IMG/VR virus record: IMGVR_UViG_3300025137_005412
Location: 64,001-128,000 of that record
DNA length: 64,000 nucleotides
From: a virus
Strand: one strand, 5' to 3'
The notes under the pieces are model-generated. The model was not told the origin of the DNA. It made no database searches and was given only the letters and a program-made list of their open reading frames with translations. Shown here piece after piece: positions 19,331 through 62,256 of this stretch (positions within the stretch are counted from its first letter, which is position 1; each line of letters begins with the position of its first letter). Both the position numbers and the translations under genes were made by a program.

Positions 19331-19331
19331 A

Positions 19332-19496: not shown

Positions 19497-19533
19497 AGTT
19501 GCTCCTTGTTAAGTATATTATACCAAAATAAGG

Positions 19534-19541: not shown

Positions 19542-19545
19542 TATC

Positions 19546-31504: not shown

Positions 31505-31505
31505 T

Positions 31506-32711: not shown

Positions 32712-32731
32712 ATATATTGAGGTAAATTATT

Positions 32732-32917: not shown

Positions 32918-32928
32918 GGAGTAATATT

Positions 32929-33378: not shown

Positions 33379-33388
33379 GGAGTAAATT

Positions 33389-33595
33389 ATGAAAGATGCG
33401 AAAGCAGCAGAACTAAACATTCGCGATATTGCCGATTGTATAAAGATTATAGATATATGCGCAAAACGAGGAGCATTCGATGGCATGGAAATGGAATCTG
33501 TGGGCAAAGTCAGAAACAGACTTGAAGTCTTCACCGAAGCATACACACAAGCAAACCCAGAAAAAACAGATGAGCAACCCGACGAAGGTAAGTAA
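33389..33595 (+). CDS. Hypothetical protein
   Basis: GGAG RBS; IID....RGAF.G.E...VG..R.RL..F pattern. Confidence 0.7.
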   Translation: MKDAKAAELNIRDIADCIKIIDICAKRGAFDGMEMESVGKVRNRLEVFTEAYTQANPEKTDEQPDEGK

Positions 33596-34052
33596 TAACT
33601 GTATTAAGATGATCAAACACCATGAAGGTGTTAGGCAACAACCATATCAAGATCCAATTGGATTATGGACTGTTGGTGTAGGTCATTTGATTGGTGATGG
33701 TAAAAAACTTCCAAAGAAATGGAACAAGACATTTTCAATGGAAGAAGTAGATAACATTTTGAAAGAAGATCTTAATAGATTTGAAAAAGGTGTTAATACA
33801 TTAATCCCTATTACTAAGCTTACACAAAATCAATTTGATGCTTTAGTATCATTCTCTTTTAATGTTGGTCTTGGTAATCTACAAGCATCTACTCTTAGAG
33901 CGAAACTAAATAGAGGTGAATATGAAGGTGCAGCTAATGAATTTCCTAAATGGAGAAAAGCTGGTGGTAGAGTATTAGCTGGATTAGTTAGAAGAAGAGC
34001 TGATGAAAAGAATTTATTTATGGCTGATGTAATTCACTCTATTGGTTATTAA
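33570..34052 (+). CDS. Endolysin, GH24 phage lysozyme
   Basis: HEG....Y.D..G.WTVG.GH, QNQFDAL.SF.FN.G, W..AGG..L.GL.RRR..E; start reassigned to ATG 33570. Confidence 0.93.
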   Translation: MSNPTKVSNNCIKMIKHHEGVRQQPYQDPIGLWTVGVGHLIGDGKKLPKKWNKTFSMEEVDNILKEDLNRFEKGVNTLIPITKLTQNQFDALVSFSFNVGLGNLQASTLRAKLNRGEYEGAANEFPKWRKAGGRVLAGLVRRRADEKNLFMADVIHSIGY

Positions 34053-34354
34053 ACAGAGAAACTTTCACCACATCCACAAGACATAGAAGCATTAGGATTT
34101 TTAATTACAAGACTTGATCCTGCAAATTGTTCAACGTAATCTACTTCAGAACCAAAGATATGTAATTCAGCTATCTTATCTACAACTAATACATCTTCAA
34201 TTAATACACCATCATCTTCAGTATTAGTAAAATCCCAGATATATTCAAAACCAGCACAGCCACCACCTTTAATAGAAAGAAATGCATACTGTTTTTCTTG
34301 TGTAGTTAATTTTTCTTTAATATATTTTTTAGCTGATGGTGATATACTAAGCAA
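34049..34354 (-). CDS. iscA: A-type Fe-S carrier (IscA/HesB family)
   Basis: GGGCAGFEY, G.EVDY, NPNA..SCGCGESF; start reassigned to TTG 34354. Confidence 0.93.
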   Translation of the reverse strand: MLSISPSAKKYIKEKLTTQEKQYAFLSIKGGGCAGFEYIWDFTNTEDDGVLIEDVLVVDKIAELHIFGSEVDYVEQFAGSSLVIKNPNASMSCGCGESFSV

Positions 34355-34922
34355 AGGTTTTTCCTGTGAATTGAGCGGTACCACCAGTATTTTGTATTTC
34401 AAAAGTATTAAATGAAGATACGGTTGTACTACCAAGTGTGAAGTTAGCTGTTGTTAAATTTGTAAATGTAGACTTACCTGTAGAAGTAAGTGTAGAACCA
34501 GAGTTCATTGTTAAATTAGGTATAGTCACATTTGAGTTAAATGTAATTGTTCCAGAAGACTTAACATTAAGTGTTCCTTCAACATCTACACTTCCTCTTA
34601 GATATGTTTTTCCAATTTGATTTGTTGTACCGTAGTTTGTCCATATATCATCAGAATCAGTACCATAATATATTGCTGTACCATTAAAACTATCTGAATC
34701 TGAACCAAGATAAATTCCACCTTGTTTTATATCAATAGTAGCGCCAGTAAATACTGCACTTCCAACAACACCAATATTACCATTGAATATGGTATCACCC
34801 GTGACTTCTAAGCCAGGCAATGTTATATTAGAAGGATTTTCAAAACCTGTTAGATTACCATTTTCATCAAATGATAAGGAGCTTATTATATCCGCGTGCT
34901 TTCTTGTTTTACTCTTAGCCAT
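34347..34922 (-). CDS. Fibre-like virion protein
   Basis: Beta-rich Gly/Thr sequence; MAKSKTR N-terminus shared with neighbours. Confidence 0.6.
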   Translation of the reverse strand: MAKSKTRKHADIISSLSFDENGNLTGFENPSNITLPGLEVTGDTIFNGNIGVVGSAVFTGATIDIKQGGIYLGSDSDSFNGTAIYYGTDSDDIWTNYGTTNQIGKTYLRGSVDVEGTLNVKSSGTITFNSNVTIPNLTMNSGSTLTSTGKSTFTNLTTANFTLGSTTVSSFNTFEIQNTGGTAQFTGKTFA

Positions 34923-34929
34923 ATATTAT

Positions 34930-36072
34930 TTATCCATTCGGGTCAATAAACTTTACTGTTTGAACTGTAGAACCTCCTACATTTTGTACAGTAAGAATCA
35001 TTTTAGTTGGTATAGAAACGTTTGTAGAACCTATGTTAAATCCATCACTATCAACAGTCATTATATTATGACCACTGCCTGAATGGTTTGCTGTTAATGT
35101 ACCATCAGAATCTCGTATATCAGATACAGTTAATTGAGGTTTATTTACTATTGTTCCACTAGAGTTATGTATTGGATTAAACTTAAATGTACCAGTTCCA
35201 GTTAATGTAGTATTTTTCATATTTACAAACGATTTACCTAACTGATTTGATCCGAAAAAAGTATCTAATCTTTGTGAACCACCATTTGCACCCATACCAG
35301 AACTTCTTGAACCTGTATTACCTGAACTATTATATTCATAAATAAAACCATTATCTGCGTCAGAGTCAGAACCTAAATATCCCCATATAACATCAGACGC
35401 TTTAAATAAAGTTCGACCTTGTAAGTCTAATGTACCGAAACTTGTGAATACAGTATTCTCTGAATCGTATTGATTTCCTGCAGTTCTTGGATATCCAAAT
35501 TGCAGAGGTGTATTTTCACCTGATACCCTAGCAATATTGATTCTCTGAGTACCGTGTTTTCTACCAAATATAATTCCACTACGTTTAACAAATCTACTAA
35601 TACCTCTACTCACTAATCCCTGATTGTTTTGACTTCCACCTACTAATATAGAATCTGAATCTAATGGAAATTTTCTATGACGGTTTGTAAAGTCATCTAA
35701 CTTATCGCCATTTATATCTTCACCAAGAAAGAAGTTTCCTTTAAAAGTTGTAAGTGAATTATCTGAATCACTACCAATGATTGCATCTTGAAATGGTCTT
35801 GCATCTGGCAAATTAGTGGATGAGAATCTATTAAAGTTATCTGAGTCTGGTCTATTATTAAGTGGGAATAATAAATTTCTTGATGTTCTTGTAAAATGAG
35901 TACGTATACTATCTGCACCTACTTCAAGTCTACCGAATTTTATTGATGTATCATTACTATTACCAAATGAAATTGCATCAGAATCTTCTGATAAGATAAA
36001 CTTACCACCTGGACTATTAGGATTTACTAAAGTATTTGCTATAAGTCTTGTTTTTGATATTTTTTGTGACAT
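34930..36072 (-). CDS. Fibre-like virion protein, DSD-rich
   Basis: SKTR N-terminal motif; about 8 DS[D/E] motifs; C-terminal L.VQNVGG.TV motif. Confidence 0.6.
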   Translation of the reverse strand: MSQKISKTRLIANTLVNPNSPGGKFILSEDSDAISFGNSNDTSIKFGRLEVGADSIRTHFTRTSRNLLFPLNNRPDSDNFNRFSSTNLPDARPFQDAIIGSDSDNSLTTFKGNFFLGEDINGDKLDDFTNRHRKFPLDSDSILVGGSQNNQGLVSRGISRFVKRSGIIFGRKHGTQRINIARVSGENTPLQFGYPRTAGNQYDSENTVFTSFGTLDLQGRTLFKASDVIWGYLGSDSDADNGFIYEYNSSGNTGSRSSGMGANGGSQRLDTFFGSNQLGKSFVNMKNTTLTGTGTFKFNPIHNSSGTIVNKPQLTVSDIRDSDGTLTANHSGSGHNIMTVDSDGFNIGSTNVSIPTKMILTVQNVGGSTVQTVKFIDPNG

Positions 36073-36078
36073 AACATT

Positions 36079-36480
36079 TTAAAAATTAAAAATTCTAGGA
36101 ATATCTTTTGTATTATCGTTTATATCACTAGGTCCTTCAATTGCATTTCTTATTGCTCCTGAAGATGCACCACCACCTCTTACAAGACCATTGCCTGAAA
36201 TTTTTAATTGCACATTTCCTGCATTATTTACTATACCACCACCTGAACCAAAACCACCATTACCTATAATATTTCCATTACATATAACTTTTATATATGT
36301 TGCTTTAGTAAAATGTGGTAATGTTAATGCTGATATTCCAGGTAATGCTGTGAGGCTTACACCGTCTGGTACGTCAATAATTACTGATGTTGCTGAAGTT
36401 CTTTCAACTTCGTTAGGTTCTATTATGTGACCTACTTGATCTGTTGTGATTTTTTTATAGTATTGAGTGAGTACATGCAT
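36079..36480 (-). CDS. Glycine-rich adhesin-like protein (resembles T2-type gp38)
   Basis: I.V..G..., YIKV..NG.I.G.GG..GGG.I.N...L.I.GNG..RGGG pattern; start reassigned to ATG 36480. Confidence 0.5.
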   Translation of the reverse strand: MHVLTQYYKKITTDQVGHIIEPNEVERTSATSVIIDVPDGVSLTALPGISALTLPHFTKATYIKVICNGNIIGNGGFGSGGGIVNNAGNVQLKISGNGLVRGGGASSGAIRNAIEGPSDINDNTKDIPRIFNF

Positions 36481-36481
36481 C

Positions 36482-36922
36482 TTAGCCTGCCGATGCTTCA
36501 GTGAAGAACCATTTACTACCGTCAAATGTTCCTGAAGCCATCTTAGCAGAGTTGCTTAATGTTGTTCCTTTAGCTCCGGTTCCCCAATCAATTGTTAATG
36601 TACCATTTGAGACTATGGATAATTGTGAACCTGCAATCCAACCAGAAGTAGGAACTGTGACTGTACCGACACCAGTGTGAATTACTGTTGTGACAAAACT
36701 TCCAGCAGTGACATTATCATTCGCTGTTAAATTTTGTACACTTCCTAGAGATCCTGTCATTGCAATGCTATTAGCAGCTATATTACCTGAGCTTACATTT
36801 CCACTTACTGAAAGTGTGGTTGATGTAATACCTTGAGTTATGATATTTGTTATATTAGCATTCGCATCTTGTTGTATAAGATTTGGTAATTCTGCGAATC
36901 TTCTAGTTTTTGATTTTGCCAT
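36482..36922 (-). CDS. Short fibre/spike-like virion protein
   Basis: MAKSKTRRFA N-terminus; beta-rich; FDGSKWF C-terminal motif. Confidence 0.6.
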   Translation of the reverse strand: MAKSKTRRFAELPNLIQQDANANITNIITQGITSTTLSVSGNVSSGNIAANSIAMTGSLGSVQNLTANDNVTAGSFVTTVIHTGVGTVTVPTSGWIAGSQLSIVSNGTLTIDWGTGAKGTTLSNSAKMASGTFDGSKWFFTEASAG

Positions 36923-36942
36923 AATTTCTCCTACTATATTTA

Positions 36943-39054
36943 TTATCCAGACGATCGCTTAAACCAAACTTGTACATTCATTTGGATTGGATCTATTGGG
37001 TTAGCACTAGCATCCCATGTACGTACACGGATAGCTCTATTGTTTGGATTTGCAATGAGTGGTTTACCACCAAAGACATCGATTGTTGCTCCTGTTTCTG
37101 AATCAGCTCCAGGACCAGGTGCTACTGCATTTGCGCCTTGAGCATCAATTGATGAGAATATCGGTTGACCTTGTGGTGCACATGTTGATACTGCCATTGA
37201 CATATAGAATCCATTAGTATCTGTAATTGGTACTACTTCAGAATCTAATAAGAAGAAGTAAATACCTTCAGCATGTCTTGAATATTTTAACTGATCTGAA
37301 TCAAATCCGTATGTTGCTCTATCAATAATCTTATTAGGATTAGGACCATTATCTGAATCAAATGAAACTCTCATCCAAGCTGCTGTGACTGGTGTCTCTT
37401 TAATAGCATCTGCAAATTGATGTGTCCATTGACCACCAGAATAAACTAATGATTCACCAATACTTGGTTGTTGACCATCGACTGCTTCATCAACATTTGA
37501 TAATTGACCAAGAGAACTTACTCCAGTTGTTGGACCACTGAATGAGTATACAGCTACAAAGTCATTAACACTGAGTTTAGTTGGGAATAATATATCATTA
37601 CCATTTACTTGATATTCAAGAACTGGTGATTGTGATAGTAGTAAACCATTAAGGAATACTAATACGTTTTGTGGGTCATTTGATGCTCCTAATACTGGAG
37701 AACAATCTACTAATCCAGTAGTAAATCCTGGATGATTAGTATTATTCACAGTAAATGTATGTTCTAAAGTATTAAATGATTCTGATGGTAATCTATTACC
37801 ACCTAATTGGTTTGATACGTTTCTTATCCATACAGCAGATAATTCATCTGAATCTTTCACATAGTTATCTGAATCAAATGCAATCATTCTTGATGCTTTG
37901 TAAGTGTTTACCTGATCAGAATCTGAATCAAAATAATAGAAGTCTCCTTGTTTCTGTGATATGTTTATACCATTCAAGAAGATTAAAGGATTACCACCGA
38001 CTCTAGCAACAATCATATCAGAATCACTGTAGATATCTGAATCAATCATTCTAAATGTTTGGTGATTTCCATTTGCACTTTGTGCGGTTGTACGAGATTT
38101 TCTAAATACAACAAAATCTGAATCTGCAAATTTAAAGTTCTTATAGAAGTGAGCTACTGATTCATCAATAGGTGATATAATAGAAACTTCATCATTTGCT
38201 TTTAAACTTCCATAGAATTGAATTGCATCAGATGGACCAGAAACTACTTGGTCAACATCTTTAGTTGTGACATTTGCAAGAATTCTATAATCAATAAATG
38301 CATACTTATCAGAATCAGAATCTCTTGTAGTTGTACCTGAACCTGTAGGAGATCTACCATCTCCAAATGCATCTGAATCTACTGGCTGTAAATGACCATT
38401 AACAAATACTACAGCATTTGCATTTGAAATTACTTTTGAGAAACCAATCTTTGTATCTGAATCTGTAATTGATTGTGGTGAAACTGCAGCTGACTGAAAG
38501 TCAATAGTAAAGTTTCCTGTTTTATCTGGATCTTGTGGTTCATACTTATTACCAGTCCATCTTAAATATTGACCAACAGTTGGACCTTTATCATTATTCA
38601 TATCACTCATTAAACGAGTAGACATTTCAGCTTGTAGTTCTGCTAATTTAGGATTATAGTTTGAATTTGTTGGGTCTAGATTATTTCTACTTTTTGCTAT
38701 TACAGCATCAACAACAGCATCCATAAGATCACTATCAAAGTGTTGACCTGATCTGAATTCAACGGTACCAGCGGTATTAAATGCTTCTTTTCTATCAGCA
38801 TCTTTTTGTACTTTATTAAATACGAGTTTGTCTTTAATTGCTGTTGAATGTCTTGTTTCAATTGTAGGATTTGCTTGATCTGGATTTACAATGAATACAT
38901 CACTATCTTTACCTGAGTTATAGTTTGCATTATCTCTCTTTACTGATAACGTAGTAAATGTTTCAATTGTATTATCACTATCAATACGTGATTTAGTTCC
39001 GTCAACTACGAAACCAGCACCTAATTTTGATAAATCTCTTGTCTTAGTACCCAT
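36943..39054 (-). CDS. Virion structural/fibre protein, DSD-rich
   Basis: MGTKTRDLS start, GQYLRWTG and LGQLSNVD..GESLVY.GG.W fibre motifs, repeated VF.NG domains, about 18 DS[D/E]. Confidence 0.7.
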   Translation of the reverse strand: MGTKTRDLSKLGAGFVVDGTKSRIDSDNTIETFTTLSVKRDNANYNSGKDSDVFIVNPDQANPTIETRHSTAIKDKLVFNKVQKDADRKEAFNTAGTVEFRSGQHFDSDLMDAVVDAVIAKSRNNLDPTNSNYNPKLAELQAEMSTRLMSDMNNDKGPTVGQYLRWTGNKYEPQDPDKTGNFTIDFQSAAVSPQSITDSDTKIGFSKVISNANAVVFVNGHLQPVDSDAFGDGRSPTGSGTTTRDSDSDKYAFIDYRILANVTTKDVDQVVSGPSDAIQFYGSLKANDEVSIISPIDESVAHFYKNFKFADSDFVVFRKSRTTAQSANGNHQTFRMIDSDIYSDSDMIVARVGGNPLIFLNGINISQKQGDFYYFDSDSDQVNTYKASRMIAFDSDNYVKDSDELSAVWIRNVSNQLGGNRLPSESFNTLEHTFTVNNTNHPGFTTGLVDCSPVLGASNDPQNVLVFLNGLLLSQSPVLEYQVNGNDILFPTKLSVNDFVAVYSFSGPTTGVSSLGQLSNVDEAVDGQQPSIGESLVYSGGQWTHQFADAIKETPVTAAWMRVSFDSDNGPNPNKIIDRATYGFDSDQLKYSRHAEGIYFFLLDSEVVPITDTNGFYMSMAVSTCAPQGQPIFSSIDAQGANAVAPGPGADSETGATIDVFGGKPLIANPNNRAIRVRTWDASANPIDPIQMNVQVWFKRSSG

Positions 39055-39067
39055 AGTTTATTTAATC

Positions 39068-41413
39068 CTAATTTACCATTGTGTGATACTCAATAGTGAT
39101 CACATCGGCTATCGCGGTGTTTACCGCAAAGTTAATAACAATATTCGAACCTGAAACTGCTGATGAACTTATATCAACCGTATGGTTAACTAAAGCAGTA
39201 CCTAATCTATTATAAGATTTAGAATTTAATTGTCTTACACCATTGTGAAATACTTTAATGTTTTCTGCTAATGGTGTTGTGACTTTATTTGGTACTACAA
39301 ATGTAAATGATGAGTATGAACCTTCAGAATCATTTACAATATGTTCTTGTGTTATCATTCTAAATGAATTAGCAATATGTTTAGAGAATATTTGGTCTAT
39401 ATCACTATCATCTCTTATTACTTGAACAACTCCTCTTGCAGTTCTTCTCTGTAAGTCAGAGTCTGAATCAAATGTTTGAATATAATTCTTTTTAAGTGTT
39501 GCTTTTAAATTTGTACCAGAAACAAGATCATCTGAGTCTAATCTTTGAACTCTATCTAAAATTAAATTATCAAATCTTACACGTAGGTCTGAATCTCTAG
39601 CCATAGAATCTGAATCAGAAGCAACTGCACTTTCAGATATTCTATTTAGTAAATGTGTGAATGTTCTTGATACAAGTTCTGAATCTGAATCCATCTTTAA
39701 GATTTCTTTTCTTGCTACACTTTGTATAAGATTGTTCTCAGAATCTTGATTTATTAATTGGTTTATAACTATATCTGAAAGTCTATCTTTAAGACTCGTG
39801 TCAGAGTCAATAGTTTTCATTACAATATCATTTACAATAACTGATTTATCTGAATCAGTAAATGATCCAATAATTGCTCTTCTTACTTTCTCTAATTCTG
39901 AATCATTACCATTCTTATAACCATTATCTGAATCACCAGATCCAAATACATATTCTCTTAATGGTCTCCATATTTTATGTCTGTGTAGTTTCTTATCACT
40001 GTCAGAAATATTAACACCATTTCCACCAAGATATCTTACAGAAGTTCTTTCTACAAACTTTTTATTAATATCAAAGAATTTTCTTGCAAATGATGGGTGA
40101 TACATGTAGTAGTTTGTATGTGTTCTCTTACCACCGTTAGTTGCTCTACTTCTGTAATCAGAATCTTTTAATTCCATCATGCTGTCTGAATCTACAGCAC
40201 CAAGTCTGAGTCCCATGAAACCCCAGAAGTTTGCATTTCTGGCAATTAGATCTGCAATATAATCTGAATCTTTTCTTACTTGAACAAGAACACCCGGTTG
40301 GGTTTTCTTATCATAACCTAATGAATATCCTTCAGAGTCTGAATCAGTTAATACTCCACGACCTTGTTGAGCATCAATTGTTCCTGAACCTGAGACACCT
40401 GCTAGATATTGAAACTCTGAATCACGTTTTAGGTGACTAAAATCAAGGTAATCATAGAATAAGTTAAAATTACCAGTGTGTAATGGTTGTGATCTTCTTG
40501 TGACTGTTTGATATGTAGCACCTAATCTTGTTCCAAGTAAGTTAGCACCATAAGTTCTCGTATGACCAGCATTAGTAAAGTCTGAATCAAGTATAATACC
40601 TTCAACAACTATAGATGCGAGTTTTCTTCTAAGGTAATAAAGTCTATTTCTGTTTGTATCTGAATCAATTAAATTATTTGTATCTGAGTCATGCTTAAGA
40701 GCACCATAAGAGAGATCTCTGTTAAATGGTAATAATAGTCTTTCAGTATTGCTTGCTGAGTTTCGTAAACCTATAGAATTTTCTTCAAAGAAATCAAGAA
40801 ATACTTCTAACATGTCTGTTGCAGCTGGTAAGTCTGAATCGTAATGTAATGGTAATTGTCTTGCAATAGCTTTATAGCCATCACTATCATTCTTGACAAT
40901 ATTCAATTCAGCTTGTAATCTTCTTAGTTCTACTTGATCAAATTTTATGAAGTTTATAAAATATGCTTTTAGTAATGTTTTGAAACTTATAAATTTTGAT
41001 GCTGAATCAGAGTCAGCCGCCATCAATACATGCGGAGCTCCTTTATAAGTGTTTCCTGCACCATCATCAAATGAAACAGGTATCTCATCTATGAAAGATC
41101 TAAGTTTTGACCATTCAGCTGAGTTAGGACCAGTGCCACTATCAATAGCTGAAGTCTTACTCCAACCAGAAGGCTTGCCATAATATTCTACTAGGTGATC
41201 GCTATCTATGTTTTGGTATATTGTATTGATGACATCTGAGTCCATGGTTCGAGCGATTGAACGAACATAGTGTCTGAGATCATCAGAAACTCGTTTTGAA
41301 TCGTGGGCCGTAACTCCACGTGAGTCATATATTTTTGAGATTTTTGCCCAATCGGAACGTAATCCCGTTACGTCGGTCTGAAAGGGTCTTATCTCGGAAT
41401 CATTCAATGCCAT
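39068..41413 (-). CDS. Large DSD-rich protein, probably virion-associated
   Basis: 781 aa with about 30 DS[D/E]; C-terminal VFHNGVRQ...I.F...D.ITIEY domain like other structural proteins; late promoter upstream. Confidence 0.65.
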   Translation of the reverse strand: MALNDSEIRPFQTDVTGLRSDWAKISKIYDSRGVTAHDSKRVSDDLRHYVRSIARTMDSDVINTIYQNIDSDHLVEYYGKPSGWSKTSAIDSGTGPNSAEWSKLRSFIDEIPVSFDDGAGNTYKGAPHVLMAADSDSASKFISFKTLLKAYFINFIKFDQVELRRLQAELNIVKNDSDGYKAIARQLPLHYDSDLPAATDMLEVFLDFFEENSIGLRNSASNTERLLLPFNRDLSYGALKHDSDTNNLIDSDTNRNRLYYLRRKLASIVVEGIILDSDFTNAGHTRTYGANLLGTRLGATYQTVTRRSQPLHTGNFNLFYDYLDFSHLKRDSEFQYLAGVSGSGTIDAQQGRGVLTDSDSEGYSLGYDKKTQPGVLVQVRKDSDYIADLIARNANFWGFMGLRLGAVDSDSMMELKDSDYRSRATNGGKRTHTNYYMYHPSFARKFFDINKKFVERTSVRYLGGNGVNISDSDKKLHRHKIWRPLREYVFGSGDSDNGYKNGNDSELEKVRRAIIGSFTDSDKSVIVNDIVMKTIDSDTSLKDRLSDIVINQLINQDSENNLIQSVARKEILKMDSDSELVSRTFTHLLNRISESAVASDSDSMARDSDLRVRFDNLILDRVQRLDSDDLVSGTNLKATLKKNYIQTFDSDSDLQRRTARGVVQVIRDDSDIDQIFSKHIANSFRMITQEHIVNDSEGSYSSFTFVVPNKVTTPLAENIKVFHNGVRQLNSKSYNRLGTALVNHTVDISSSAVSGSNIVINFAVNTAIADVITIEYHTMVN

Positions 41414-41442
41414 TGGTCACCAATTATAAAGTATACTTGATT

Positions 41443-41465
41443 TATTTATTCTTTTGGAATAAATA
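41443..41465. promoter_or_regulatory. Back-to-back late promoters
   Basis: TATTTATT (41443-50, minus-strand AATAAATA) and AATAAATA (41458-65) form an inverted repeat between divergent structural operons. Confidence 0.7.
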
Positions 41466-41469
41466 ATTC

Positions 41470-41877
41470 ATGGCAATACAACAGACATTTCAAAGAAAAA
41501 GCAAATATAAAGATTTCGATCTAAACTTCACAAAACACCCTCTTACAAATGATTTAGCTGTAAAAAAAGGTGTATCATCTATTAATCAATCTGTGAAGAG
41601 TTTAATTCAGACCGCTTTCTATGAGAGACCATTTCAACCGACTCTTGGTTCACAAGCTAGAAGCCTTTTGTTTGAAAATGCTGATGCGATAGTTATACAG
41701 AACATGAGAACATTGATCAAAGAGACAATTACAAATCATGAACCAAGAGTAGCAGTGCGAAGTATTGCTATTCAAGATATGACAGATTCAAATGCTTATG
41801 CTATTGAATTAAGATATGAGATGCTTGATATTAAAACAGATGAGACACTCAATATAGTTCTCGAGAGACTGAGGTAA
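41470..41877 (+). CDS. gp25: Baseplate wedge gp25
   Basis: YKDFDLNF..HP...D, SI.QSV..L..T..YERPF.P..G, I..HEPRV, L.RLR. Confidence 0.95.
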   Translation: MAIQQTFQRKSKYKDFDLNFTKHPLTNDLAVKKGVSSINQSVKSLIQTAFYERPFQPTLGSQARSLLFENADAIVIQNMRTLIKETITNHEPRVAVRSIAIQDMTDSNAYAIELRYEMLDIKTDETLNIVLERLR

Positions 41878-41879
41878 AA

Positions 41880-49353: not shown

Positions 49354-49381
49354 TAAATAAAAAGAGAGAGATTTACTATAT

Positions 49382-55300: not shown

Positions 55301-55654
55301 ACTGCAGCATATATAACAAAAGATATTACACTCTTAGAACCAGCAACCCAGATACGAGTATTATTTGATGCTGATATGGATCCAGGTGCTGAGCTTGTAG
55401 TTAAGTATAAAGCTAGAGTTGTAGGTGATAATACTCAATTTGAAGAATTAGAATGGCAAACATTCCCTAGAAATCAAGTAGTAAATGAAACAAACTTTGG
55501 TAAGTTCACATCAGATATTGATTTTGATCAATACTCATTAACGCAAGATGTTGGATTTGAATTTGAGTCATTTAAAATTAAAATTGAAATGAATTCTGAG
55601 AACTCTTCCTTCATCAGTCAAGTAAGAGATTTAAGAATTATTGCAGTAGTATAA
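49382..55654 (+). CDS. Very large virion structural protein (DUF4815/VrlC-like)
   Basis: NLNVSPYFDDFD..K.Y.RVLFRPG.AVQARELTQLQ N-terminus; YTMRDIG.LE.RI..LE, GF.VD.F, DPIAQ, F.SQNG.TW, DLRIIA end. Confidence 0.88.
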   Translation: MSTINLNVSPYFDDFDEKKDYLRVLFRPGFAVQARELTQLQTIAQKQVSRQGNHIFKDGSRVTEGNVNINFNTHNMNLISGSGNINFPLSGALTGSVEATLDNFSETIISNQDNTVKARVLKTPTGSVLANKTGNIYFTYITSKKFTDSDQGYIYARAEDNPELTVTYVNVFSKVSEATMATILSGIYYIDGFFARIQEQNIVVSSTTQKPTAAIGFSITSKDISANDDASLFDNARGSTNEGAPGANRLQNLISVLIKSTLDQGSDPTFYKQVEIKDGVILGDTEKTPTGSRVTPNPMYNGLGDTMARRRKEESGSYAVNKFIPKIQQQSYEDSDKFAVSFSKGLAYINGYRQETFADELIYLDRNTEAKKETNHKIPILGAPYVEVRNVNSGTMSGMLTADANGIGAFTNKLALKDSDGNTIGFARSYGYQATNGETNGRVYLTDVKMFQHVRFGPSGTYDSDTSHFWRNSLIAGEQVTATLNGKVQTGDVVKLYAQHKNDSDWTDINFSPNGLNRLGGVSSYKTTGVLLTNSNAQFQKGAKIEGSIDRTVVLSPRIENARQFKFAEVREVRGSTNDSEGVSFKAFTDWTPGEGAKMKNVSGALFGGTGKTFKTLRSGTVPFDNDFDVLYKAPPTISSTDGGLAVTPDFSDSQWSTHFRNGDYKKTRIDDAVEITKELKYGVLKIRNTSDITRSSSVNSSWSALDRKINLFYPDIYRVYKIVHGSTNNSFGTSTTEPNASFDRIKVNISGGATIPQGSLIIGKTSKTRARVALSNTIATGQTTLSGSTGYHISMSGTGAQDLLEVCFEKGQAFTAGEQLKIKVPAKEDAISSEITFTEVNTKKPGSDITANYLLDDGQRVDSYHIGSVIRKTGVPAPANGDILIFYSYFDANPFQSFYYGVDSYSGDGFYDVDPRYYGKPTEIKEYEAYTGLNLRNVIDFRFRQRLISGYATTNNPLSFLYREFENTGVHVIPDGQFSTDAEFFTGQNISFILNNKGRIKTVPGVADVKSPKDPDIQAGGMVLATISVPPAVRYPDKEIVIFSDQQRGYTMRDIGKLEKRIRNLETSVSLSLLESKALQDNIGTRVKSGFIVDDFSSAINTPADITNTQFRSSIDVSRNVLRPPSVETNVQLQRVSDGNRIDPFFLAQNTGFILKSYTQEQMLEQTFASSLVRINPFATWVYSGQIELNPTQDFWRDPTWNVVENFFVDRTSFGGGLSTVSQSVFDNLVPVTRDIPNTNFNTVETNWTGTVTSTTTDDFGNPMLGWWWWNQGGTTTTTTETQVGTETTSNFIAQEEEFTSSSDFNVREVREKDDAWIRSQTLEFEGQGFRPDTDLKAIFDGQDVSSTCSQTDFLPLETTTARTYAVQGNLKTDGKGQIRGRFIIPSQTFKTGTKGFILSDKDGSKTTEGTVFFTSRGFFEVGDLTNFRATRDAGNRLISSQTSNVTGESTVTTNTVWNPFIWPIFNLNIGGGDPIAQLFTLPLDPGSDPNNFNPVRNEARSTGSFITSVDIFLGFIDTRANNDHVICEIRSSDNGYPGREILGRARVDVTKANENISKPTVATNFRFTNPVYLQEETEYAIVLLTPSDTTSAWTALQGEEDVITGGKITSQPNVGGYFGSFFKSQNGSTWTAEQNRDLTFKAYRAKFDLGESAITMRDKANFYGQPIGQAAQGLAVETFNNSYYIKIHHPNHGMYGPDDTHSVRILGVAGNGNISNAADSDLVRFRGESALNGLPVSLINNVSSLGNLTTTSTTAKHKVKFATQDTYIIDMSEADSDTSAVASSPTTGGWHKQVKSGRGGGVQVVATANVQYDSIRTNTQAINFDETSVKQEVKTTTGANLILRSASNQFGYNTDSIYYKSPLVKDTAAVNLPMDKLTDFDHPRIILGSMNKSSSADFEQILYLNTANEYLSPVIRLDAASQMFVLKNNYGKYIDDSELAGFIDSDLAASSNTTKQKQYASYKAGLSSFDETAAYITKDITLLEPATQIRVLFDADMDPGAELVVKYKARVVGDNTQFEELEWQTFPRNQVVNETNFGKFTSDIDFDQYSLTQDVGFEFESFKIKIEMNSENSSFISQVRDLRIIAVV

Positions 55655-55833
55655 TGCATAAACGTGATTTAAAAAGAGATCCTAAGAATGGTGCTCTATT
55701 AAATACTAATAGACAAGATGTTATTGAGTACAAAAAGAAAATTGCTGAAGAACATGAAAATGAAAAAAGATTAACAACACTAGAAAAAAAGATGGATAAA
55801 ATTATAAACATATTGGAGAAGCTTGATGGCTAA
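55654..55833 (+). CDS. Small coiled-coil protein (59 aa, not in ORF track)
   Basis: MHKRDLKRDPKNGALLNTN...; L.RD...A..NT motif typical of the gene following DUF4815 in aquatic T4-like phages; TAATG coupling. Confidence 0.7.
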   Translation: MHKRDLKRDPKNGALLNTNRQDVIEYKKKIAEEHENEKRLTTLEKKMDKIINILEKLDG

Positions 55834-56668
55834 TTTAAGAGATATACTAGTACCAAATTTTGGATTTCAGGATTCTGATACTGAAGTAGGTATTGCTCCA
55901 GTTAATATAGATTCAGGTACTTTACCATTTAATGATGCTAGCAGAATTGTAAAAAACAATGTTAGAATTAATATTGGTTCTTCACCTAATTCAAACACAG
56001 GTGATCCATTAAGAACAGCATTTATTAAAATTGGAAACTTTATGGAAGCAGTTTATCGAGCTGACTCTGATAAAGACTTACGTGTTAAAAGATTTGAAAC
56101 ACCAGTAGGTGACTCTGACTTTAGAATTTTAGGTGTCAAGAGTTGTGATGATTTAAGATGGGATTCTGATGGTGTACATACAAATTTAGGAAATGCAAAC
56201 ACAGGATTTGATAGTGATACATTTGCTGGTCTAAAACCTGGTGATACATTACTCCTTACAGATCAAATATCTCCTAGAAGTAGACAGTCATTTGTTGACA
56301 GATATGCAAGATCTAATCCACACGGTCGTATTGATATTAATACAGTAAGACTAAAAAATAATGAATACAGTGTAAACGCACCAGCATTCTTAAAAGTAGG
56401 CGCTGATGGTTTATTAAAAGTACAAACTGAGTTTGCCTTAGATCAAGTTGGTCTTGATTTTGATGGTGCATTAGAAAGATTAAGTGCAGGTACTCAAAAA
56501 AGTAAACTAAGCTCAGCAGATCAAAAAAAATTATATCAAGACTTTAATGATGTTCAAGGTTTAACATCCTCATCTTTCAGAATCAGTGCTAGTAATATAG
56601 AAGATGGCTTTGCTGAATTAGTAGCCAGACAAGTAAGGATTGGATACGATGCAGGATTCTATGGATAA
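55826..56668 (+). CDS. Baseplate/fibre-connector-like protein (gp9/gp10-type motif)
   Basis: INIGSSPNSNTGDPLRTAFIKI..F resembles the T4 gp10/gp9 N-terminal motif; 5 DSD. Confidence 0.6.
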   Translation: MANLRDILVPNFGFQDSDTEVGIAPVNIDSGTLPFNDASRIVKNNVRINIGSSPNSNTGDPLRTAFIKIGNFMEAVYRADSDKDLRVKRFETPVGDSDFRILGVKSCDDLRWDSDGVHTNLGNANTGFDSDTFAGLKPGDTLLLTDQISPRSRQSFVDRYARSNPHGRIDINTVRLKNNEYSVNAPAFLKVGADGLLKVQTEFALDQVGLDFDGALERLSAGTQKSKLSSADQKKLYQDFNDVQGLTSSSFRISASNIEDGFAELVARQVRIGYDAGFYG

Positions 56669-56677
56669 TGAGCACAG

Positions 56678-57778
56678 ATGTCAACAGTAAGAAACAACTT
56701 TGCAGGATTCACAATCGCACCAACCGGATTTGGTGGAGATTCAGATAACGATTCCGATTTCGGTGAAAATCTAAACCGATCAATACAAGCAATCAATAAA
56801 TCTTATGCCATTAAATCAGGCGTACAAAACACATTCATCGATGGATACATAAATCAATTTGGTGCTTCATCACGTTTCTCTACAAATGAACAGAGAACAA
56901 TGCAGAACCTTATTAGAGAATCAATTAATGTTAATGGTATAACAATACGTTATATGCCAAGAGCATCTGATTATACTGATAATGTTTGGAATGAAAGACC
57001 TGAATCTCACTTTGATTCTGGTTATCAAATAGATATGCTTCTCGTAGCTTCTGCTGGATTTGAAGGTGAAGGAGATACTATGACTCTTTATGGTATGGAG
57101 TTCAGAGAAGAAGTTATAATGTCTGTTGCAATTAATAATTTTACACAAAAAGATTCTGATTATAGAACAGTACTTAAACAAAGACTTACTGATTCAGATG
57201 GTTTTGCTACAGGAGGTGAATCTGCTTCTAATGATTCTGATTCTGATCAATATCAAAAATTACTTTCAAAATTTGCAAGAACAAGACCACTTGAAGGTGA
57301 TCTTATTGTAATACCATTTGGTAGATCTGCACAAAACAAAAGTCAGTATGTACCAAAAGTCTTTGAAATTACTCGTGTGACCACATATCATGATGGTGCT
57401 TTCTTTCAATTAGGAAATAACTATCAATATAAGATACACGCTAAACTATTCGAATTATCTGGAGAAGACTTGTACTTCAATCCAACTGCTATTACATATA
57501 GTAATACAGGTTCAGCTACAAGTACTACAGACGAAATAGTCACGCAAGCGGCAACAGGAATTACATTTACTGATTCAGAAACTAAAGCTATTGACATAAC
57601 TGATAGTGATTTAATTACTGACTCTTGGGCTTCTAATACTGAAATTGAACAAAGAGCAGAAAGTCAAGAAGTCTATGATAATAATGGTGTAGTAAGAGAA
57701 ACACCGAAAACAATAACAGATGACTATACAGCGAGAGCTTTTGGTCAACCAGGAATAAGGAATTTGGATAATATCTAA
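56678..57778 (+). CDS. gp14: Neck protein gp14 with DSD-bearing insertions
   Basis: EQ.....L..ESI...G..I.YMPR, GFEG.GD....G.E, RPLEGDLI..P, FEI..V, FFQLG..Y.Y....LFE.S.E. Confidence 0.9.
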   Translation: MSTVRNNFAGFTIAPTGFGGDSDNDSDFGENLNRSIQAINKSYAIKSGVQNTFIDGYINQFGASSRFSTNEQRTMQNLIRESINVNGITIRYMPRASDYTDNVWNERPESHFDSGYQIDMLLVASAGFEGEGDTMTLYGMEFREEVIMSVAINNFTQKDSDYRTVLKQRLTDSDGFATGGESASNDSDSDQYQKLLSKFARTRPLEGDLIVIPFGRSAQNKSQYVPKVFEITRVTTYHDGAFFQLGNNYQYKIHAKLFELSGEDLYFNPTAITYSNTGSATSTTDEIVTQAATGITFTDSETKAIDITDSDLITDSWASNTEIEQRAESQEVYDNNGVVRETPKTITDDYTARAFGQPGIRNLDNI

Positions 57779-58644
57779 TGTTAGGAACTCACTTTTATCA
57801 CGAAACTGTTAAGACTGCAACTGCGGTCTTCGGTAGTTTATTCAACAACATCGTTATCAAAAGACGTGATGGTAAACTATTACCTGTTCCTATTTCTTAT
57901 GGTCCAAGACAAAAATGGTTGGAAGCTCAAAAAGGTTTAAGACCAACTGAAGAGATGTTTGAAAAACTATTACCAAGAATGTCTTATGAGTTTGTTGCAA
58001 TGGTTTATGATTCAAATAGAAAATTAAACAACAAACCAAATGTATTTAGATCTCCAGATAGTTTAGCTTATCCAAGACAAAAGGCTAATATGCCTACACC
58101 ATACACTTTATCATATACATTACATATTGAAACAAAGACATTGAATGATGGATGGCAAATTATAGAACAGATTGTACCATTCTTTAACCCAGCTTATACT
58201 GTCAAAGTAAGACATTTTCCTGCTGATGCAGATACTAATACACCAACACCTACAAATGCATTTGACATGCCGTTCCAACTTACATCAGTCACATGGACAG
58301 ATGATTGGACAGGAGATATTAATACAAGAAGAACCGTAGAATGGACACTAGAATTTGAAACAAAAACTTGGTTCCATGGACCGATTGCAGCAACAAAAGT
58401 AATCTTAGATTCAAGAGCAATAGTTGCTACTCCTGGAAATGCAACAGATTCTGATAGACAAGATCTTAACCTATTAAGAAGAAGTGATAGTGATCTTATG
58501 GGAGCTGATGTAGGTTATGCTGTGCTTCAGAAAAATGACTCTGAAGGTATATATGACAGTGACTCGAAAGTTAGTCCAAGTATTACAAACTTAACAGACT
58601 CTGATGGATTAAGAGTATTATTAGTACGAGATTTCAACCTCTAA
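57778..58644 (+). CDS. gp15: Tail sheath stabiliser / terminator gp15
   Basis: HFYHE......FGSLFNNI, VP.SYGP..KW, LPRMS.E, QIIEQI.PFF.P, W.L.F..K.W..GP. Confidence 0.93.
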   Translation: MLGTHFYHETVKTATAVFGSLFNNIVIKRRDGKLLPVPISYGPRQKWLEAQKGLRPTEEMFEKLLPRMSYEFVAMVYDSNRKLNNKPNVFRSPDSLAYPRQKANMPTPYTLSYTLHIETKTLNDGWQIIEQIVPFFNPAYTVKVRHFPADADTNTPTPTNAFDMPFQLTSVTWTDDWTGDINTRRTVEWTLEFETKTWFHGPIAATKVILDSRAIVATPGNATDSDRQDLNLLRRSDSDLMGADVGYAVLQKNDSEGIYDSDSKVSPSITNLTDSDGLRVLLVRDFNL

Positions 58645-58659
58645 TGGAATAAATAAATC

Positions 58660-60084
58660 ATGGCCACAAAAGATTTAATCAACTTAGGTATATCACCCGA
58701 CTCAGGAACAGGAGACTCGGCAAGAAAAGGTGGAGCAAAGATAAATGATTTGCTTTCAGATGTTTATAGTAAATTCGGTGACAATCCGATTGGTCAAGAT
58801 ATAGACAAACCTTTCTATGGTTATCGTAGAAGATTTGGTGAGTTTGAATATAGAGTTGGTGAATTACATCCTGCGGGAAAATACCTCAACATCTCTTTTA
58901 GAACTGTAAACGCCAATAGAGATTCAGATTACACAACTGGTTTTAAATTACTAGATCAAACAAGAGGTTGGAGAATCGATGCTGATTCAGATAATGATGG
59001 TATTCCAGATTTATATTTAGATTCAGAATTTTATTTTGCATCAAGAGGAGAAACTATCGATGTTGATGTTTCTGGTGTAGATGTAAATAGAACTGCTCAC
59101 GTAGTATTACCTATTGCACAAGCTGGTGATGTAATTAAAATAAGAGAATCAAGAGGTTCTTTCTCAAATGGTAGGTCAATGTCAATATGGACAACACCAT
59201 TTAGATTCAAAGATTCAGATCAAAGAGCTGAATGGAAAAACAATTCAAATAACGTTGTAGCACCACAAAATAAACACACATTTGTAAGAGACATTGATGG
59301 TACATTTCAAAATGCATCAGCATTTAGTATTCCATTTGATTCAGAAGGTGCAGTATTTTCTCAACGTTCATTAGGTTATGGTGTAAGTTATGCTGGTGAA
59401 CTTGGTTCATACGGTATTAAGTCTTCTATTGAACTAAATTCAAATCATTCTATATATGAGTTTACATATTCTGGCCATGATATTGGTTGGGTATTTGTAA
59501 GACATAATATAAGAGCATCAGCAAGAGATTCAGATAATTTAAAAATCTATACAGATATATTTGATTCAGATGATTGGCATCAAACAACTGCTAATTTCAC
59601 AATTGGCGGTGTCACAGAAGTTCCATCTGGTAGATATATGCTACCAATAACAAGATATTCGTTTGCTGATACAACATTTAGTAGAGAGTTTGAAAGTTTA
59701 CAATCTGTAATGGATGTTAAGATCTATAAAGCTGTAATGCAAGATGGAAACAAAACTACTATAAATAATGAAGTACTAGAATTTATTAGATCACAACTTT
59801 ATAACTCAATTGATTCTGAAATGGGTGCAAGTAATACTGATTCTGATAAAGTTTCAAGATTTAAAACGGTATGGGGTACTCAAGGTGCAGACTCAGATAG
59901 CGCACAACCTGGTTCCTATACAAATACAAATAGCTATGGTGCTGATGGTTATACTGGATTCAATGATGTTGATAAGATGTTTATTCCAGTTGATGTCACA
60001 ACAGTTATGGATAATGAAGGAAATGCAATTGTATTTTCACAAACAAAATTTAAAGGACAAGCAAAGATTATAACTTTAGGATAA
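58660..60084 (+). CDS. Baseplate fibre-connector gp9/gp10-like protein, DSD-rich
   Basis: INLG..PD.GTGD.AR.GG.KIN....VY..FGD N-terminus; about 10 DS[D/E]. Confidence 0.7.
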   Translation: MATKDLINLGISPDSGTGDSARKGGAKINDLLSDVYSKFGDNPIGQDIDKPFYGYRRRFGEFEYRVGELHPAGKYLNISFRTVNANRDSDYTTGFKLLDQTRGWRIDADSDNDGIPDLYLDSEFYFASRGETIDVDVSGVDVNRTAHVVLPIAQAGDVIKIRESRGSFSNGRSMSIWTTPFRFKDSDQRAEWKNNSNNVVAPQNKHTFVRDIDGTFQNASAFSIPFDSEGAVFSQRSLGYGVSYAGELGSYGIKSSIELNSNHSIYEFTYSGHDIGWVFVRHNIRASARDSDNLKIYTDIFDSDDWHQTTANFTIGGVTEVPSGRYMLPITRYSFADTTFSREFESLQSVMDVKIYKAVMQDGNKTTINNEVLEFIRSQLYNSIDSEMGASNTDSDKVSRFKTVWGTQGADSDSAQPGSYTNTNSYGADGYTGFNDVDKMFIPVDVTTVMDNEGNAIVFSQTKFKGQAKIITLG

Positions 60085-60087
60085 TAA

Positions 60088-62256
60088 ATGACTATTAATT
60101 TTAATAACGGCAGACCAACATATCAACACAGAAGATCTTTATCAACAGGATTGAATGCTGAAGGTCAACCAACCACAGATCAGATAGAACAAGGTGAGAT
60201 AGCCATTAACCTTTCTACAAGAAAGATTTATACAAAACGTCCTACTGTTTCTCGTGACTCTGATGGTAAATCAGATGTTTTAGAAGTAGGTAAAATATTA
60301 AGAAGTGGTGTTAAATATCGTCTTCCAGGATTTCAACCATTTGGTCAACAGATTCAAAATGGTGGTCAAATTAAAGTTATTTCAAGAAGAATTTTAGATT
60401 CAGATCAAGCTGGTTTATCAGTTAAAATTAAAATTAGACAACATGGATTTTTAGATTCTGATGAAGCACTAAACTATACAAGAGATTCAGATGCTTATGC
60501 TATAACCATGACAGATTCTGATGGTACAAATACATTAGCATCATCAGCTGCAAACAGAGATGGTACTATTACTAATGGTGATGGTAAAGCTTATATGATT
60601 CGTCATATACCAGTTTTCAAAGCTTTTTGTGATAGAGCTCAATCAGATAAGTTAAAGTTATTGCTTCATGATTCTGATGGTACCGCAGATTCTGATGGTA
60701 CTCCTGTTAATGCAGTTTCTGGTTCTAAATTTGGTGGTGGTATTGTAGAAGTATCTTTCAATATTGATTCAGATTTAAGTTCAACAGAAATAGCAACAAG
60801 AATTTCAAGTGCTGTAAATAGTTCATCAGCACTAGCCGCAATGGATGCTAAGATTAAAGCTGAAGTTGATAGAACAAGTCCAGATATTGTATACATTTAT
60901 GGTGGTGATAAAAAAATTACAGTAGAAGCTTCTGATAAATTTACTAAGACTATTGATAATTCAATCACACCATTATTTAAGTTTGTACCACAAGATTCAG
61001 ATACTAATTTCTTAAAGAGAGATTCAGAGAATGATTCAGACTTTGCAAAAAGAGTTGAAGTCACATTCTTCTACTTAGATGAAACAAAACCAAGAATTGC
61101 CGCTACTGGTGAGATCATGGATACTTCTACATTCGGTATTGATACTATTTCAAACTCACCTATCTTTGCAAGAAATTCTCTTATTCTAAAGAATGTGGTC
61201 GGTAATATTGGAACTGTTGATTCAGATCAAACAGCTCCTGGTCAAGTAAATGCTACAGAAAATAATAGATTCAAATTAAGACCAGCTGCATTTACCGGTG
61301 TTGATGAGATTATTGCACTTAATGCGGTTGCAGTTGTAAGTGCTACACCACCTGCATTTGATATTACTAACGGTTCATTATGGTTAGAAGATAATAGTAA
61401 TAAAACACCAAGATTTGATGCTGTTGATTCAGAAACCCATCACATGGAAGTTGTATTCAACAGAAGAGGCACATTCACAGGTAATCCAGATTCAGAATTC
61501 TCAGTTCCTTACGGTGCATTAGTAAATCAAACAGCTGCCGATTCAGATGATAAAGTATTAAACATTAATGTTGGAGATTCAGAAGCTGGTGTTGCAAGAA
61601 AAATTGTAAACTTATTAAATGATTCTGATTATAAAACAAGAGCAGGTAGAAAAGGAACAGCAATTCAAAGAAACTCTATGGGTTCAGGTCTCATGGGTAG
61701 ATATGATTCAGATTCAGATGGTTCTCCTAGAGGAACAGGCTATAAGTTCATATCAGTAATGTATGATTCAGAGCATGACTCTGATCTATTTGGTAAGAGA
61801 ATTTATCTACCAACAAATGATGATTCAGATGGTAGAAATATTGTAGTAAGAACTGGCACAGATACCGATCAACATTTTGATGGTCTTGTTATTGAGATAA
61901 TCAATAAACAAACAGAGACTGGTAGAACATTTGCAGGTTTCAGAGCCGCAGAGATTTACTTCTTAGATGCAACATTAATTGATGATCCTACAGCACAAAC
62001 TAAAGCATTGGATTTATCATCTGCAGAAAGAACAGATAAAAATATTGTTAAACACTCAGTAAAACCAGGTATGAGTAATACCGATTCAGATGGATCATAT
62101 AGATATGCTGAGTGGAGAACTATTAGTTCAACATCAGTACTTTCACCTCAAGCACTATCACTTAGTATTGCTGGTCAAAGTTTCTCAAGTACACAATCAT
62201 TAATTGTACAAGATGTGAATGGATTAACGGTTCTTTCTGGTCAACTATTAGTATAA
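60088..62256 (+). CDS. Tail fibre protein, DSD-rich
   Basis: RRS...G..P....GEIAIN....IYTK resembles the T4 gp37-type fibre N-terminus; about 23 DS[D/E]. Confidence 0.7.
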   Translation: MTINFNNGRPTYQHRRSLSTGLNAEGQPTTDQIEQGEIAINLSTRKIYTKRPTVSRDSDGKSDVLEVGKILRSGVKYRLPGFQPFGQQIQNGGQIKVISRRILDSDQAGLSVKIKIRQHGFLDSDEALNYTRDSDAYAITMTDSDGTNTLASSAANRDGTITNGDGKAYMIRHIPVFKAFCDRAQSDKLKLLLHDSDGTADSDGTPVNAVSGSKFGGGIVEVSFNIDSDLSSTEIATRISSAVNSSSALAAMDAKIKAEVDRTSPDIVYIYGGDKKITVEASDKFTKTIDNSITPLFKFVPQDSDTNFLKRDSENDSDFAKRVEVTFFYLDETKPRIAATGEIMDTSTFGIDTISNSPIFARNSLILKNVVGNIGTVDSDQTAPGQVNATENNRFKLRPAAFTGVDEIIALNAVAVVSATPPAFDITNGSLWLEDNSNKTPRFDAVDSETHHMEVVFNRRGTFTGNPDSEFSVPYGALVNQTAADSDDKVLNINVGDSEAGVARKIVNLLNDSDYKTRAGRKGTAIQRNSMGSGLMGRYDSDSDGSPRGTGYKFISVMYDSEHDSDLFGKRIYLPTNDDSDGRNIVVRTGTDTDQHFDGLVIEIINKQTETGRTFAGFRAAEIYFLDATLIDDPTAQTKALDLSSAERTDKNIVKHSVKPGMSNTDSDGSYRYAEWRTISSTSVLSPQALSLSIAGQSFSSTQSLIVQDVNGLTVLSGQLLV

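Follow-up and report, generated by a model that had tools for sequence, protein, structure and literature searches.

Why should one acidic tripeptide, Asp-Ser followed by Asp or Glu (D-S-[D/E], written DS[DE] below), recur in many unrelated tail proteins of a single marine phage? The question is raised by a 64,000-nt stretch of DNA (the window), which comprises bases 64001-128000 of the IMG/VR contig IMGVR_UViG_3300025137_005412, a sequence of 152,041 bp with 33% G+C and a CheckV completeness of 85%, whose own coordinates are given below as genome positions. The window contains a set of T4-type morphogenesis genes (gp25, gp6, gp7, gp8, a DUF4815/VrlC-like giant, neck, gp15, and gp9/10-like); those for the terminase, sheath, tube, portal, and prohead protease lie outside it on the same contig, and the gene for the major capsid protein is not on the contig. 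The nearest named phages are Melnitz, which infects OM43 Methylophilales, and the pelagiphage HTVC008M, with a gp6 identity of merely 33-36%, and the GenBank phage collection holds neither a nucleotide match to the contig nor a cultured member of the motif-positive clade. The trait belongs to a large clade of uncultured T4-like phages from the sea, which is common in metagenomes. The DS[DE] feature is real, very strong, and evolutionarily maintained and, as far as our literature searches went, undescribed, since they returned no paper describing such a motif in phages. The best available hypothesis is that it serves as a sequon for protein modification, a mechanism proposed here rather than demonstrated.

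A strictly defined tripeptide in the tail proteins

Expected counts were derived from residue shuffles, and DS[DE] was counted per open reading frame (ORF) and then genome-wide. Of its 189 occurrences in the genome, 181 sit in only 18 proteins (10,008 amino acids, aa), for which shuffling predicts 9.6, an enrichment of about 20-fold over chance, and the remaining 170 ORFs (39,080 aa) contain the other 8. The shuffles gave 0.2-1.5 DS[DE] per protein, with a maximum of 7. In an unbiased tripeptide scan of the genome, DSD ranks first (141 vs 6.2 expected, z = 54) and DSE third (40 vs 3.3 expected). Most of the carriers, together with the motif-free proteins that serve for comparison, are the following (window positions unless stated otherwise).

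34347-34922, minus strand: 191-aa protein, 2 DS[DE]
34930-36072, minus strand: 380-aa protein, 8 DS[DE]
36943-39054, minus strand: 703-aa protein of no known family, 18 DS[DE]
39068-41413, minus strand: 781-aa protein of no known family, 30 DS[DE], the highest density of any carrier (3.8 per 100 aa)
41470-43694, plus strand: gp25 and gp6, inner baseplate wedge, 0 DS[DE], an internal negative control in the same gene block
43694-47941, plus strand: gp7-like baseplate wedge protein of 1415 aa, PF23786 at the N-terminus, 29 DS[DE]
47941-49353, plus strand: gp8 baseplate wedge protein of 470 aa, 10 DS[DE]
49382-55654, plus strand: DUF4815/VrlC-like giant protein of 2090 aa, 10 DS[DE], confined to residues 148-579 and 1721-1946
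55823-56668, plus strand: 281-aa protein, 5 DS[DE]
56678-57778, plus strand: T4 neck protein (gp13/gp14 family) of 366 aa, PF11649, 8 DS[DE]
57778-58644, plus strand: gp15 tail terminator of 288 aa, PF16724, 5 DS[DE]
58660-60084, plus strand: gp9/gp10-like baseplate protein of 474 aa, PF07880, 10 DS[DE]
60088-62256, plus strand: 722-aa fibre-like protein, 23 DS[DE]
62265-63245, plus strand: 326-aa Ser-rich protein (14.7% Ser), 0 DS[DE]
Genome 36231-36881, 41968-42933, 148372-149364, and 150318-150698: four ORFs without a known family, away from the tail block, 5, 5, 4, and 2 DS[DE], respectively

A preliminary description of this DNA had counted the motif by eye and proposed a comparison with a composition-shuffled null, which the genome-wide excess given above now supplies. 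Our recount returned identical figures for the richest proteins (30, 29, 23, and 18, and 10 each for gp8, the 2090-aa protein, and 58660-60084), resolved its range of 5-8 into 8 each for 34930-36072 and 56678-57778 and 5 each for 55823-56668 and gp15, and agreed that gp6, gp25, and 62265-63245 are free of the motif. The interval that it had assigned to the feature, 34347-62256, does contain carriers but is too narrow, as the sheath protein and the four outlying ORFs carry the motif as well.

The tripeptide tolerates very little change. Ser outnumbers Thr at the middle position by 181:5 (DTD 3, DTE 2), Asp outnumbers Glu at the first by 181:1, and the third is exclusively Asp or Glu. The related tripeptides ESD, ESE, DTD, DTE, NSD, DSN, DGD, and DAD occur genome-wide at or below expectation, as do all DSx combinations other than DSD and DSE (including DSA, DSL, DSI, and DSV), which upholds the earlier statement that the residue after DS is overwhelmingly acidic. 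A fuller form of the motif can be written [not D/E]-D-S-[D/E]-[not P/R]: Pro directly follows it in 0 of 181 cases here and 0 of 162 in the independent lineage G001, Arg almost never does, and an acidic residue before it is rare. Beyond this, the flanks carry at most 0.3 bit per position and show no Cys framework. The motif Ser is encoded by TCA (52%), TCT (30%), and AGT (13%), the usage found outside the motif (the preliminary description had noted both TCN and AGY codons), and the Asp codons likewise mirror the background. Read in the sense frame, the matching nucleotide pattern turns up 181 times, against at most twice in every other frame or strand. Such background codon usage combined with a pattern confined to the sense frame indicates that selection acts on the peptide, and both rule out an origin at the DNA level, be it a 9-bp insertion element, a GANTC methylation site, or an mRNA signal. 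Tandem repeats, as the preliminary description had held, and heptad repeats are also ruled out in this phage by the aperiodic gaps between motifs (20 of 140 are multiples of 7); gaps of exactly 2 number 8 of 163, so that the motifs stand isolated and form no long tandem Ser-Asp repeats. Composition bias is excluded by the shuffles and by ORF 62265-63245, whose Ser content of 14.7% without a single DS[DE] indicates that Ser richness alone does not suffice to generate the motif. DS[DE] is thus strictly discriminating and selected at the protein level.

The near-absence from other proteins noted in the preliminary description may go beyond a lack of enrichment. Non-virion proteins hold 8 DS[DE] where about 20 are expected, a depletion of about 2.4-fold (P ~0.002) measured in a single genome on a protein set partly defined after the fact. 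For related control tripeptides in these proteins, and for DS[DE] itself in Melnitz and HTVC008M, no significant deficit was seen. This depletion is suggestive of a reader acting in trans.

Location of the motif and its history among phages

An AlphaFold2 model of gp8 that draws on 19 homologues (pLDDT 80, pTM 0.78) places all ten motifs in loops or where a helix or strand begins, in line with the surface loops anticipated earlier, and in the alignment of the gp8 family they occupy variable blocks, never the conserved core blocks. In gp15, whose Pfam domain spans residues 5-222, the five motifs are all found further on, in a C-terminal extension (residues 224-274). The five of the sheath protein (residues 101-283) occur only in an insertion that separates its conserved N-terminal domain from the core domain; this insertion presumably faces outward, as the corresponding domains of T4 gp18 form the outer surface. 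The tube, portal, terminase, protease, gp5, gp6, and gp25 proteins have 0-1 motifs each, and the major capsid protein of G004, an 85%-identical relative, has one. Such placement supports the location of DS[DE] in loops, outer domains, and lineage-specific extensions, outside conserved cores, and implies that it marks the periphery of the tail machine rather than the whole virion. The term 'virion-wide' used in the preliminary description was therefore too broad, given that the tube, portal, gp5, gp6, gp25, and (in G004) capsid proteins are not enriched.

The motif is retained while its surroundings change. In two homologues of the 781-aa protein with 84-85% identity (L001 and L002), all 30 motifs are kept, with one DSD to DSE swap, and the flanks vary. 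Homologues of gp8, from 90% down to 29% identity, each have 2-10 motifs and outgroups 0-1; four clusters of sites persist in 14-18 of 19 homologues, and the remaining sites slide by up to 4 residues or turn over, with the sum per protein in this comparison (down to 30% identity) staying at 3-10. By contrast, gp6 contains no DS[DE] in any relative checked. A distant subclade whose gp8 is about 37% identical (contigs G001, G002, G003, G005, and L092-L104) reproduces the same pattern protein by protein, with 0 motifs in gp6, 18 in gp7, 8 in gp8, and 5-6 in the neck protein, and has about 20 motifs in a protein that takes the position of the 781-aa protein and has no BLAST similarity to it. Melnitz and HTVC008M, whose genomes are complete, contain 0.45-0.49 motifs per 1000 aa, vs 5-8.6 in motif-positive contigs, and the structural proteins of cyanophage S-SM2 show no DS[DE] above chance. 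Judging from these comparisons, the trait appears to be specific to one lineage, the point for which the preliminary description had proposed aligning homologues: it is present in gp8 of the clade down to 29% identity and absent from the three named phages. The same alignments support purifying selection acting on the number and approximate place of the sites and not on their exact position.

Other uncultured T4-like lineages (L035, L040, L081, L150, and L178 among them) show a weaker, 5- to 8-fold enrichment of D-S-[D/A], for example with DSA counts of 13-18 vs 2-3 expected. Phage C48C1 (L226, GenBank OQ984149.1) has 8 DSD, 9 DSE, and 7 DSA, vs 1.6 expected for each, in its gp7 (15242-19948); its enrichment is limited to gp7 and one fibre, and it encodes glycosyltransferase family A, described below, and not family B.

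Two further contigs carry repeats of another kind. In G001 (IMG/VR 3300017913_002047), three proteins encoded after the terminase (49747-57582; 1524, 403, and 671 aa) contain 45, 10, and 21 DS[DE], respectively, with about half of the gaps being multiples of 7, the commonest 14, in a coiled-coil-like sequence (DSExLxIxxLRxxI). In the motif-negative G009 (IMG/VR 3300035670_000163), five fibres (27287-40141 and 48320-50944) contain [H/Y]-A-N-[S/T] at spacings of 7, 14, and 21 residues (YAN 67 vs 6 expected, HAN 30 vs 1.4), resembling YadA-head-type repeats. As an alternative sequon this second motif was ruled out, being a heptad-based fibre repeat with 7/14-residue spacing and not a scattered site.

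A possible modification signal and the candidate enzymes

What would such a motif be for? Its strictness, the exclusion of Pro, the sliding sites, the exposed placement outside cores, and the apparent avoidance elsewhere together point to recognition in trans, most simply by a Ser-modifying enzyme. As expected of sequons in general, DS[DE] is short, strict, enriched in its presumed targets, exposed, and located outside conserved cores. We propose that it would be a short signal recognised in the infected cell by a factor acting in trans, its Ser most likely becoming O-modified during synthesis of the late virion proteins; the leading candidate chemistry would be glycosylation, the sugar being made by the phage, and the second would be modification of a flanking Asp. 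Selection would keep a set number of sites where the peripheral parts of the tail are exposed, in loops, outer domains, and extensions (gp7, gp8, the gp9/10-like protein, neck, the gp15 tail, the outer domain of the sheath, and fibres), and would keep conserved cores, inner parts, and non-virion proteins free of them. On balance we lean towards a modification sequon, with roughly two thirds of that weight on Ser O-glycosylation; attachment, attached group, and responsible enzyme are matters that we can only infer. A more specific proposal, which we put forward tentatively, is that D-S-[D/E] (D-S-[D/A] in sister lineages) may direct a covalent coat onto the exposed tail periphery (baseplate rim, neck, sheath surface, and fibres), the group being made by the phage, such as a perosamine-type or acidic sugar, and the writer being a new enzyme beyond current family models.

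The carriers are tail, neck, and baseplate proteins of T4 type, which in T4 assemble in the cytoplasm. The candidate enzymes encoded by the phage are found at the following places.

Genome 105-11270, outside the window: sugar/acyl island (L006), with three GT-B-like paralogues, GDP-mannose 4,6-dehydratase, DegT, a GT8-like gene, a phrog_1962 glycosyltransferase, SDR, ketosynthase, and two TauD genes
Window 12684-14261, minus strand, and genome 47631-49148: radical SAM proteins, the first resembling class B (B12-type) methyltransferases, far below family cut-offs
Genome 127968-130712: A/B/C operon adjoining fibre genes (family A, family B, and a divergent A-like C)
Genome 131144-131911: PF05118 (Asp_Arg_Hydrox)-like oxygenase (Pfam E = 3e-8)

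The GDP-mannose 4,6-dehydratase and the DegT aminotransferase correspond to a perosamine-type route, and two proteins of the nucleoside diphosphate-sugar dehydrogenase family are also encoded, along with at least eight glycosyltransferase-like genes, among which are the three paralogous GT-B-like genes and the GT8-like one. Other tailoring genes comprise the ketosynthase, both TauD paralogues, a fatty acid desaturase, the two radical SAM genes, and the PF05118 Asp/Asn-hydroxylase-like gene; no carrier protein or phosphopantetheinyl transferase (PPTase) was found for the sugar/acyl island. Family A is GT-A-like, with an invariant D-L-D (DxD), a match to the phrog_1962 'glycosyltransferase', and weak LgtC/GT8 matches in the PDB. 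Family B is predicted to adopt a class I methyltransferase fold (AlphaFold2 and Foldseek, probability 1.0, TM 0.4-0.5), and neither family reaches any Pfam or NCBIfam threshold. The late-promoter motif TATAAATA lies 18 nt upstream of the A/B/C operon and likewise upstream of the sheath gene; it occurs 15 times in the genome (at 130730, 137550, and 144385, among other positions), 9 of them 5-97 nt upstream of a gene start. Because two operons of the enzyme island have it, as does the sheath gene, this island is probably expressed late.

Families A and B are encoded in every motif-positive contig and absent from the complete, motif-negative genomes of Melnitz, HTVC008M, and S-SM2, and the A/B/C module was at first supported as the specific writer. 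It was then undermined by motif-negative carriers and discordant phylogenetic affinity, which opens a series of points that weigh against a modification sequon. Retrieval led by family B returned 80 viral contigs, 67 of them without motif enrichment; G009 has the whole operon (A2-B-A1-C) and a full structural module and no enrichment, and among other bearers of the module G012 is not enriched and in G013 a single protein has a slight excess at most. The operon of the source phage is closer to that of the motif-negative G009 (45-58% identity) than to the operon found in the motif-positive subclade (24-33%); for the structural genes the affinity is the opposite. Glycos_transf_1 (PF00534), the GT4/SdgB-type family, has no match in this 85%-complete genome, in a search whose control was positive in 14 of 14 genomes, and neither do Pkinase (Hanks), CotH kinase, ACPS/PPTase, and 2OG-FeII_Oxy_3 (P4H-type). 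No enzyme, then, could be tied to the motif, and DNA hypermodification or a reshaping of the host surface would be alternative tasks for the glycosyltransferases. The strong trait apparently arose once, so that co-occurrence and phylogenetic profiling have little power. Two carriers (genome 148372-149364 and 150318-150698) sit between the portal and prohead protease genes and may belong to the interior of the head, which would be a misfit with simple surface exposure, and the recurrence of the motif every 14 residues in the coiled-coil-like repeats of G001 fits a structural role as well. The preliminary description, which had suggested a sequon and a search for glycosyltransferases, kinases, or hydroxylases that accompany it, thus stands in part. 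The motif is strict at the protein level, placed in loops, lineage-specific, selected, and depleted elsewhere, and glycosyltransferases and a hydroxylase-like oxygenase are present; a kinase was not detected in the genome, and no writer tracks the motif. Its analogy with SdgA/B falls short for want of a GT4 (PF00534) enzyme in the genome, and its 'undescribed system' and 'coating code' are still conjectural.

The same observations may be read without any enzyme. An unmodified structural element, such as an acidic hydrated turn, a helix or strand N-cap, a binding site for seawater Ca2+ or Mg2+, or a source of negative surface charge, could have been selected convergently within one lineage; the failure to find a writer and the 14-residue recurrence in G001 are compatible with it, several gp8 motifs coincide with the very start of a helix or strand in the AlphaFold2 model, and Arg is avoided after the motif as it is at helix N-termini. 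We nonetheless hold this main rival unlikely, because capping or chelation should accept Thr, Asn, and Glu, which are excluded 30- to 180-fold, and homologous folds in Melnitz, HTVC008M, and S-SM2 do without the motif in the same seawater. The depletion in non-virion proteins is not predicted by a purely local structural role, and the sliding of sites within loops also speaks against it.

A reader other than a Ser-modifying phage enzyme might also be involved. Beta-hydroxylation of Asp by an Fe(II)/2-oxoglutarate oxygenase, either the PF05118-like protein or one of the twin TauD proteins, would create hydroxy-Asp metal ligands, the second option of the preliminary description. Besides its Pfam match, the PF05118-like protein has an HxD...H triad (H127, D129, H180) and an Arg that are invariant in 4 homologues, its homologues adjoin a gene related to the class B radical SAM gene of window 12684-14261 in the motif-positive G001 and G005, and no such oxygenase was found in Melnitz, HTVC008M, G009, G012, and G013. 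However, 295 relatives of this AspH-like family in viral contigs lie mostly outside motif-rich or structural contexts, the motif-positive fragments G002 and G003 have no copy, and the absolute need for a middle Ser would be left unexplained. The phage also has acyl-chain genes (ketosynthase and desaturase), and PF05118 extends to lipid A hydroxylases (LpxO) too. We hold Asp hydroxylation improbable. About equally improbable, in our view, is reading by a host factor or binding partner, namely a host kinase or transferase, or a component of the virion or host surface that docks on the motif. It would agree with the lack of a phage-encoded writer that co-varies with the trait and, according to PMC13445384, modification of a phage tail protein can depend on a host enzyme; yet about 180 sites multiplied by protein copy numbers would be a heavy load for a stoichiometric partner.

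Known systems and neighbouring genes

The closest precedent, by analogy, would be the SdgB/SdgA system, in which SdgB and SdgA place N-acetylglucosamine on the Ser of DSD motifs in staphylococcal Ser-Asp repeat adhesins (PMC3794999). Common to both is an acceptor Ser, here a putative one, flanked by Asp (141 DSD and 40 DSE in the phage, known from sequence alone). In the staphylococcal case nearly every DSD is modified, by a cytoplasmic enzyme acting on a surface-destined protein (PMC3794999). By contrast, its substrates are long tandem Ser-Asp repeats in one protein family, whereas the phage motifs stand singly, without a period, in some 18 folded proteins unrelated to each other, and its writers are GT4 (GT-B) enzymes, for which the source genome has no Glycos_transf_1 match.

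The general O-glycosylation of Bacteroidota acts in the periplasm, on exported (periplasmic or outer-membrane) proteins, while phage tails assemble in the cytoplasm. Its sequon, D-(S/T)-(A/I/L/V/M/T), resembles DS[DE] in being a three-residue, Asp-led site spread across many unrelated proteins (PMC8550257). The weaker D-S-A enrichment of other phage lineages formally fits this sequon, which nevertheless accepts Thr and takes a non-polar third residue, whereas in the source phage Thr is excluded and the third residue is acidic. The source phage has the defining features of neither system. Virion glycosylation is itself not foreign to phages: mycobacteriophage virion proteins are reportedly decorated by phage-encoded glycosyltransferases, according to work by Freeman et al. 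in 2023 (a reference of PMC12801897). The targets there are reportedly C-terminal, Ser/Thr-rich parts of the subunits of capsid and tail tube, and no short sequon is known to be involved. Here, on the contrary, capsid and tube are spared and the site is a strict tripeptide.

Resemblances at the level of the enzymes have similar limits. Family A resembles GT8-type GT-A enzymes (LgtC-like) in its retained DxD and in the matches noted above, and family B resembles class I SAM methyltransferases in its predicted fold, but both families fall below Pfam and NCBIfam thresholds and the pair does not track the motif. The PF05118-like oxygenase has the Fe(II)/2-oxoglutarate facial triad of Asp/Asn beta-hydroxylases, though the consensus of their epidermal growth factor-type substrates does not occur in DS[DE], whose flanks lack a Cys framework.

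Should DS[DE] prove to be a sequon, tailed phages would have their first short consensus site for virion protein modification. Being readable from sequence, such a site would allow the coated surfaces of uncultured ocean phages to be predicted. The coat would bear on host recognition, particle sticking, and virion decay in seawater, and the system might provide a compact tag-and-enzyme pair for protein engineering. Even unmodified, a strict tripeptide enriched 20-fold and under selection across a clade would constitute an unexplained rule of tail surface design.

Two other genes of the window deserve mention. The motif-rich minus-strand fibre/baseplate operon ends with a gene for an IscA/HesB-type Fe-S carrier (window 34049-34435, minus strand; PF01521, with the three Cys kept); a tie to the trait was ruled out, as among the contigs compared only the close relative G004 has this gene. 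A ClpX/HslU-like AAA+ ATPase (AAA_2 and ClpB_D2-small; window 17543-18676, minus strand) has no match in Melnitz or HTVC008M and has a counterpart with 55% identity in G001.

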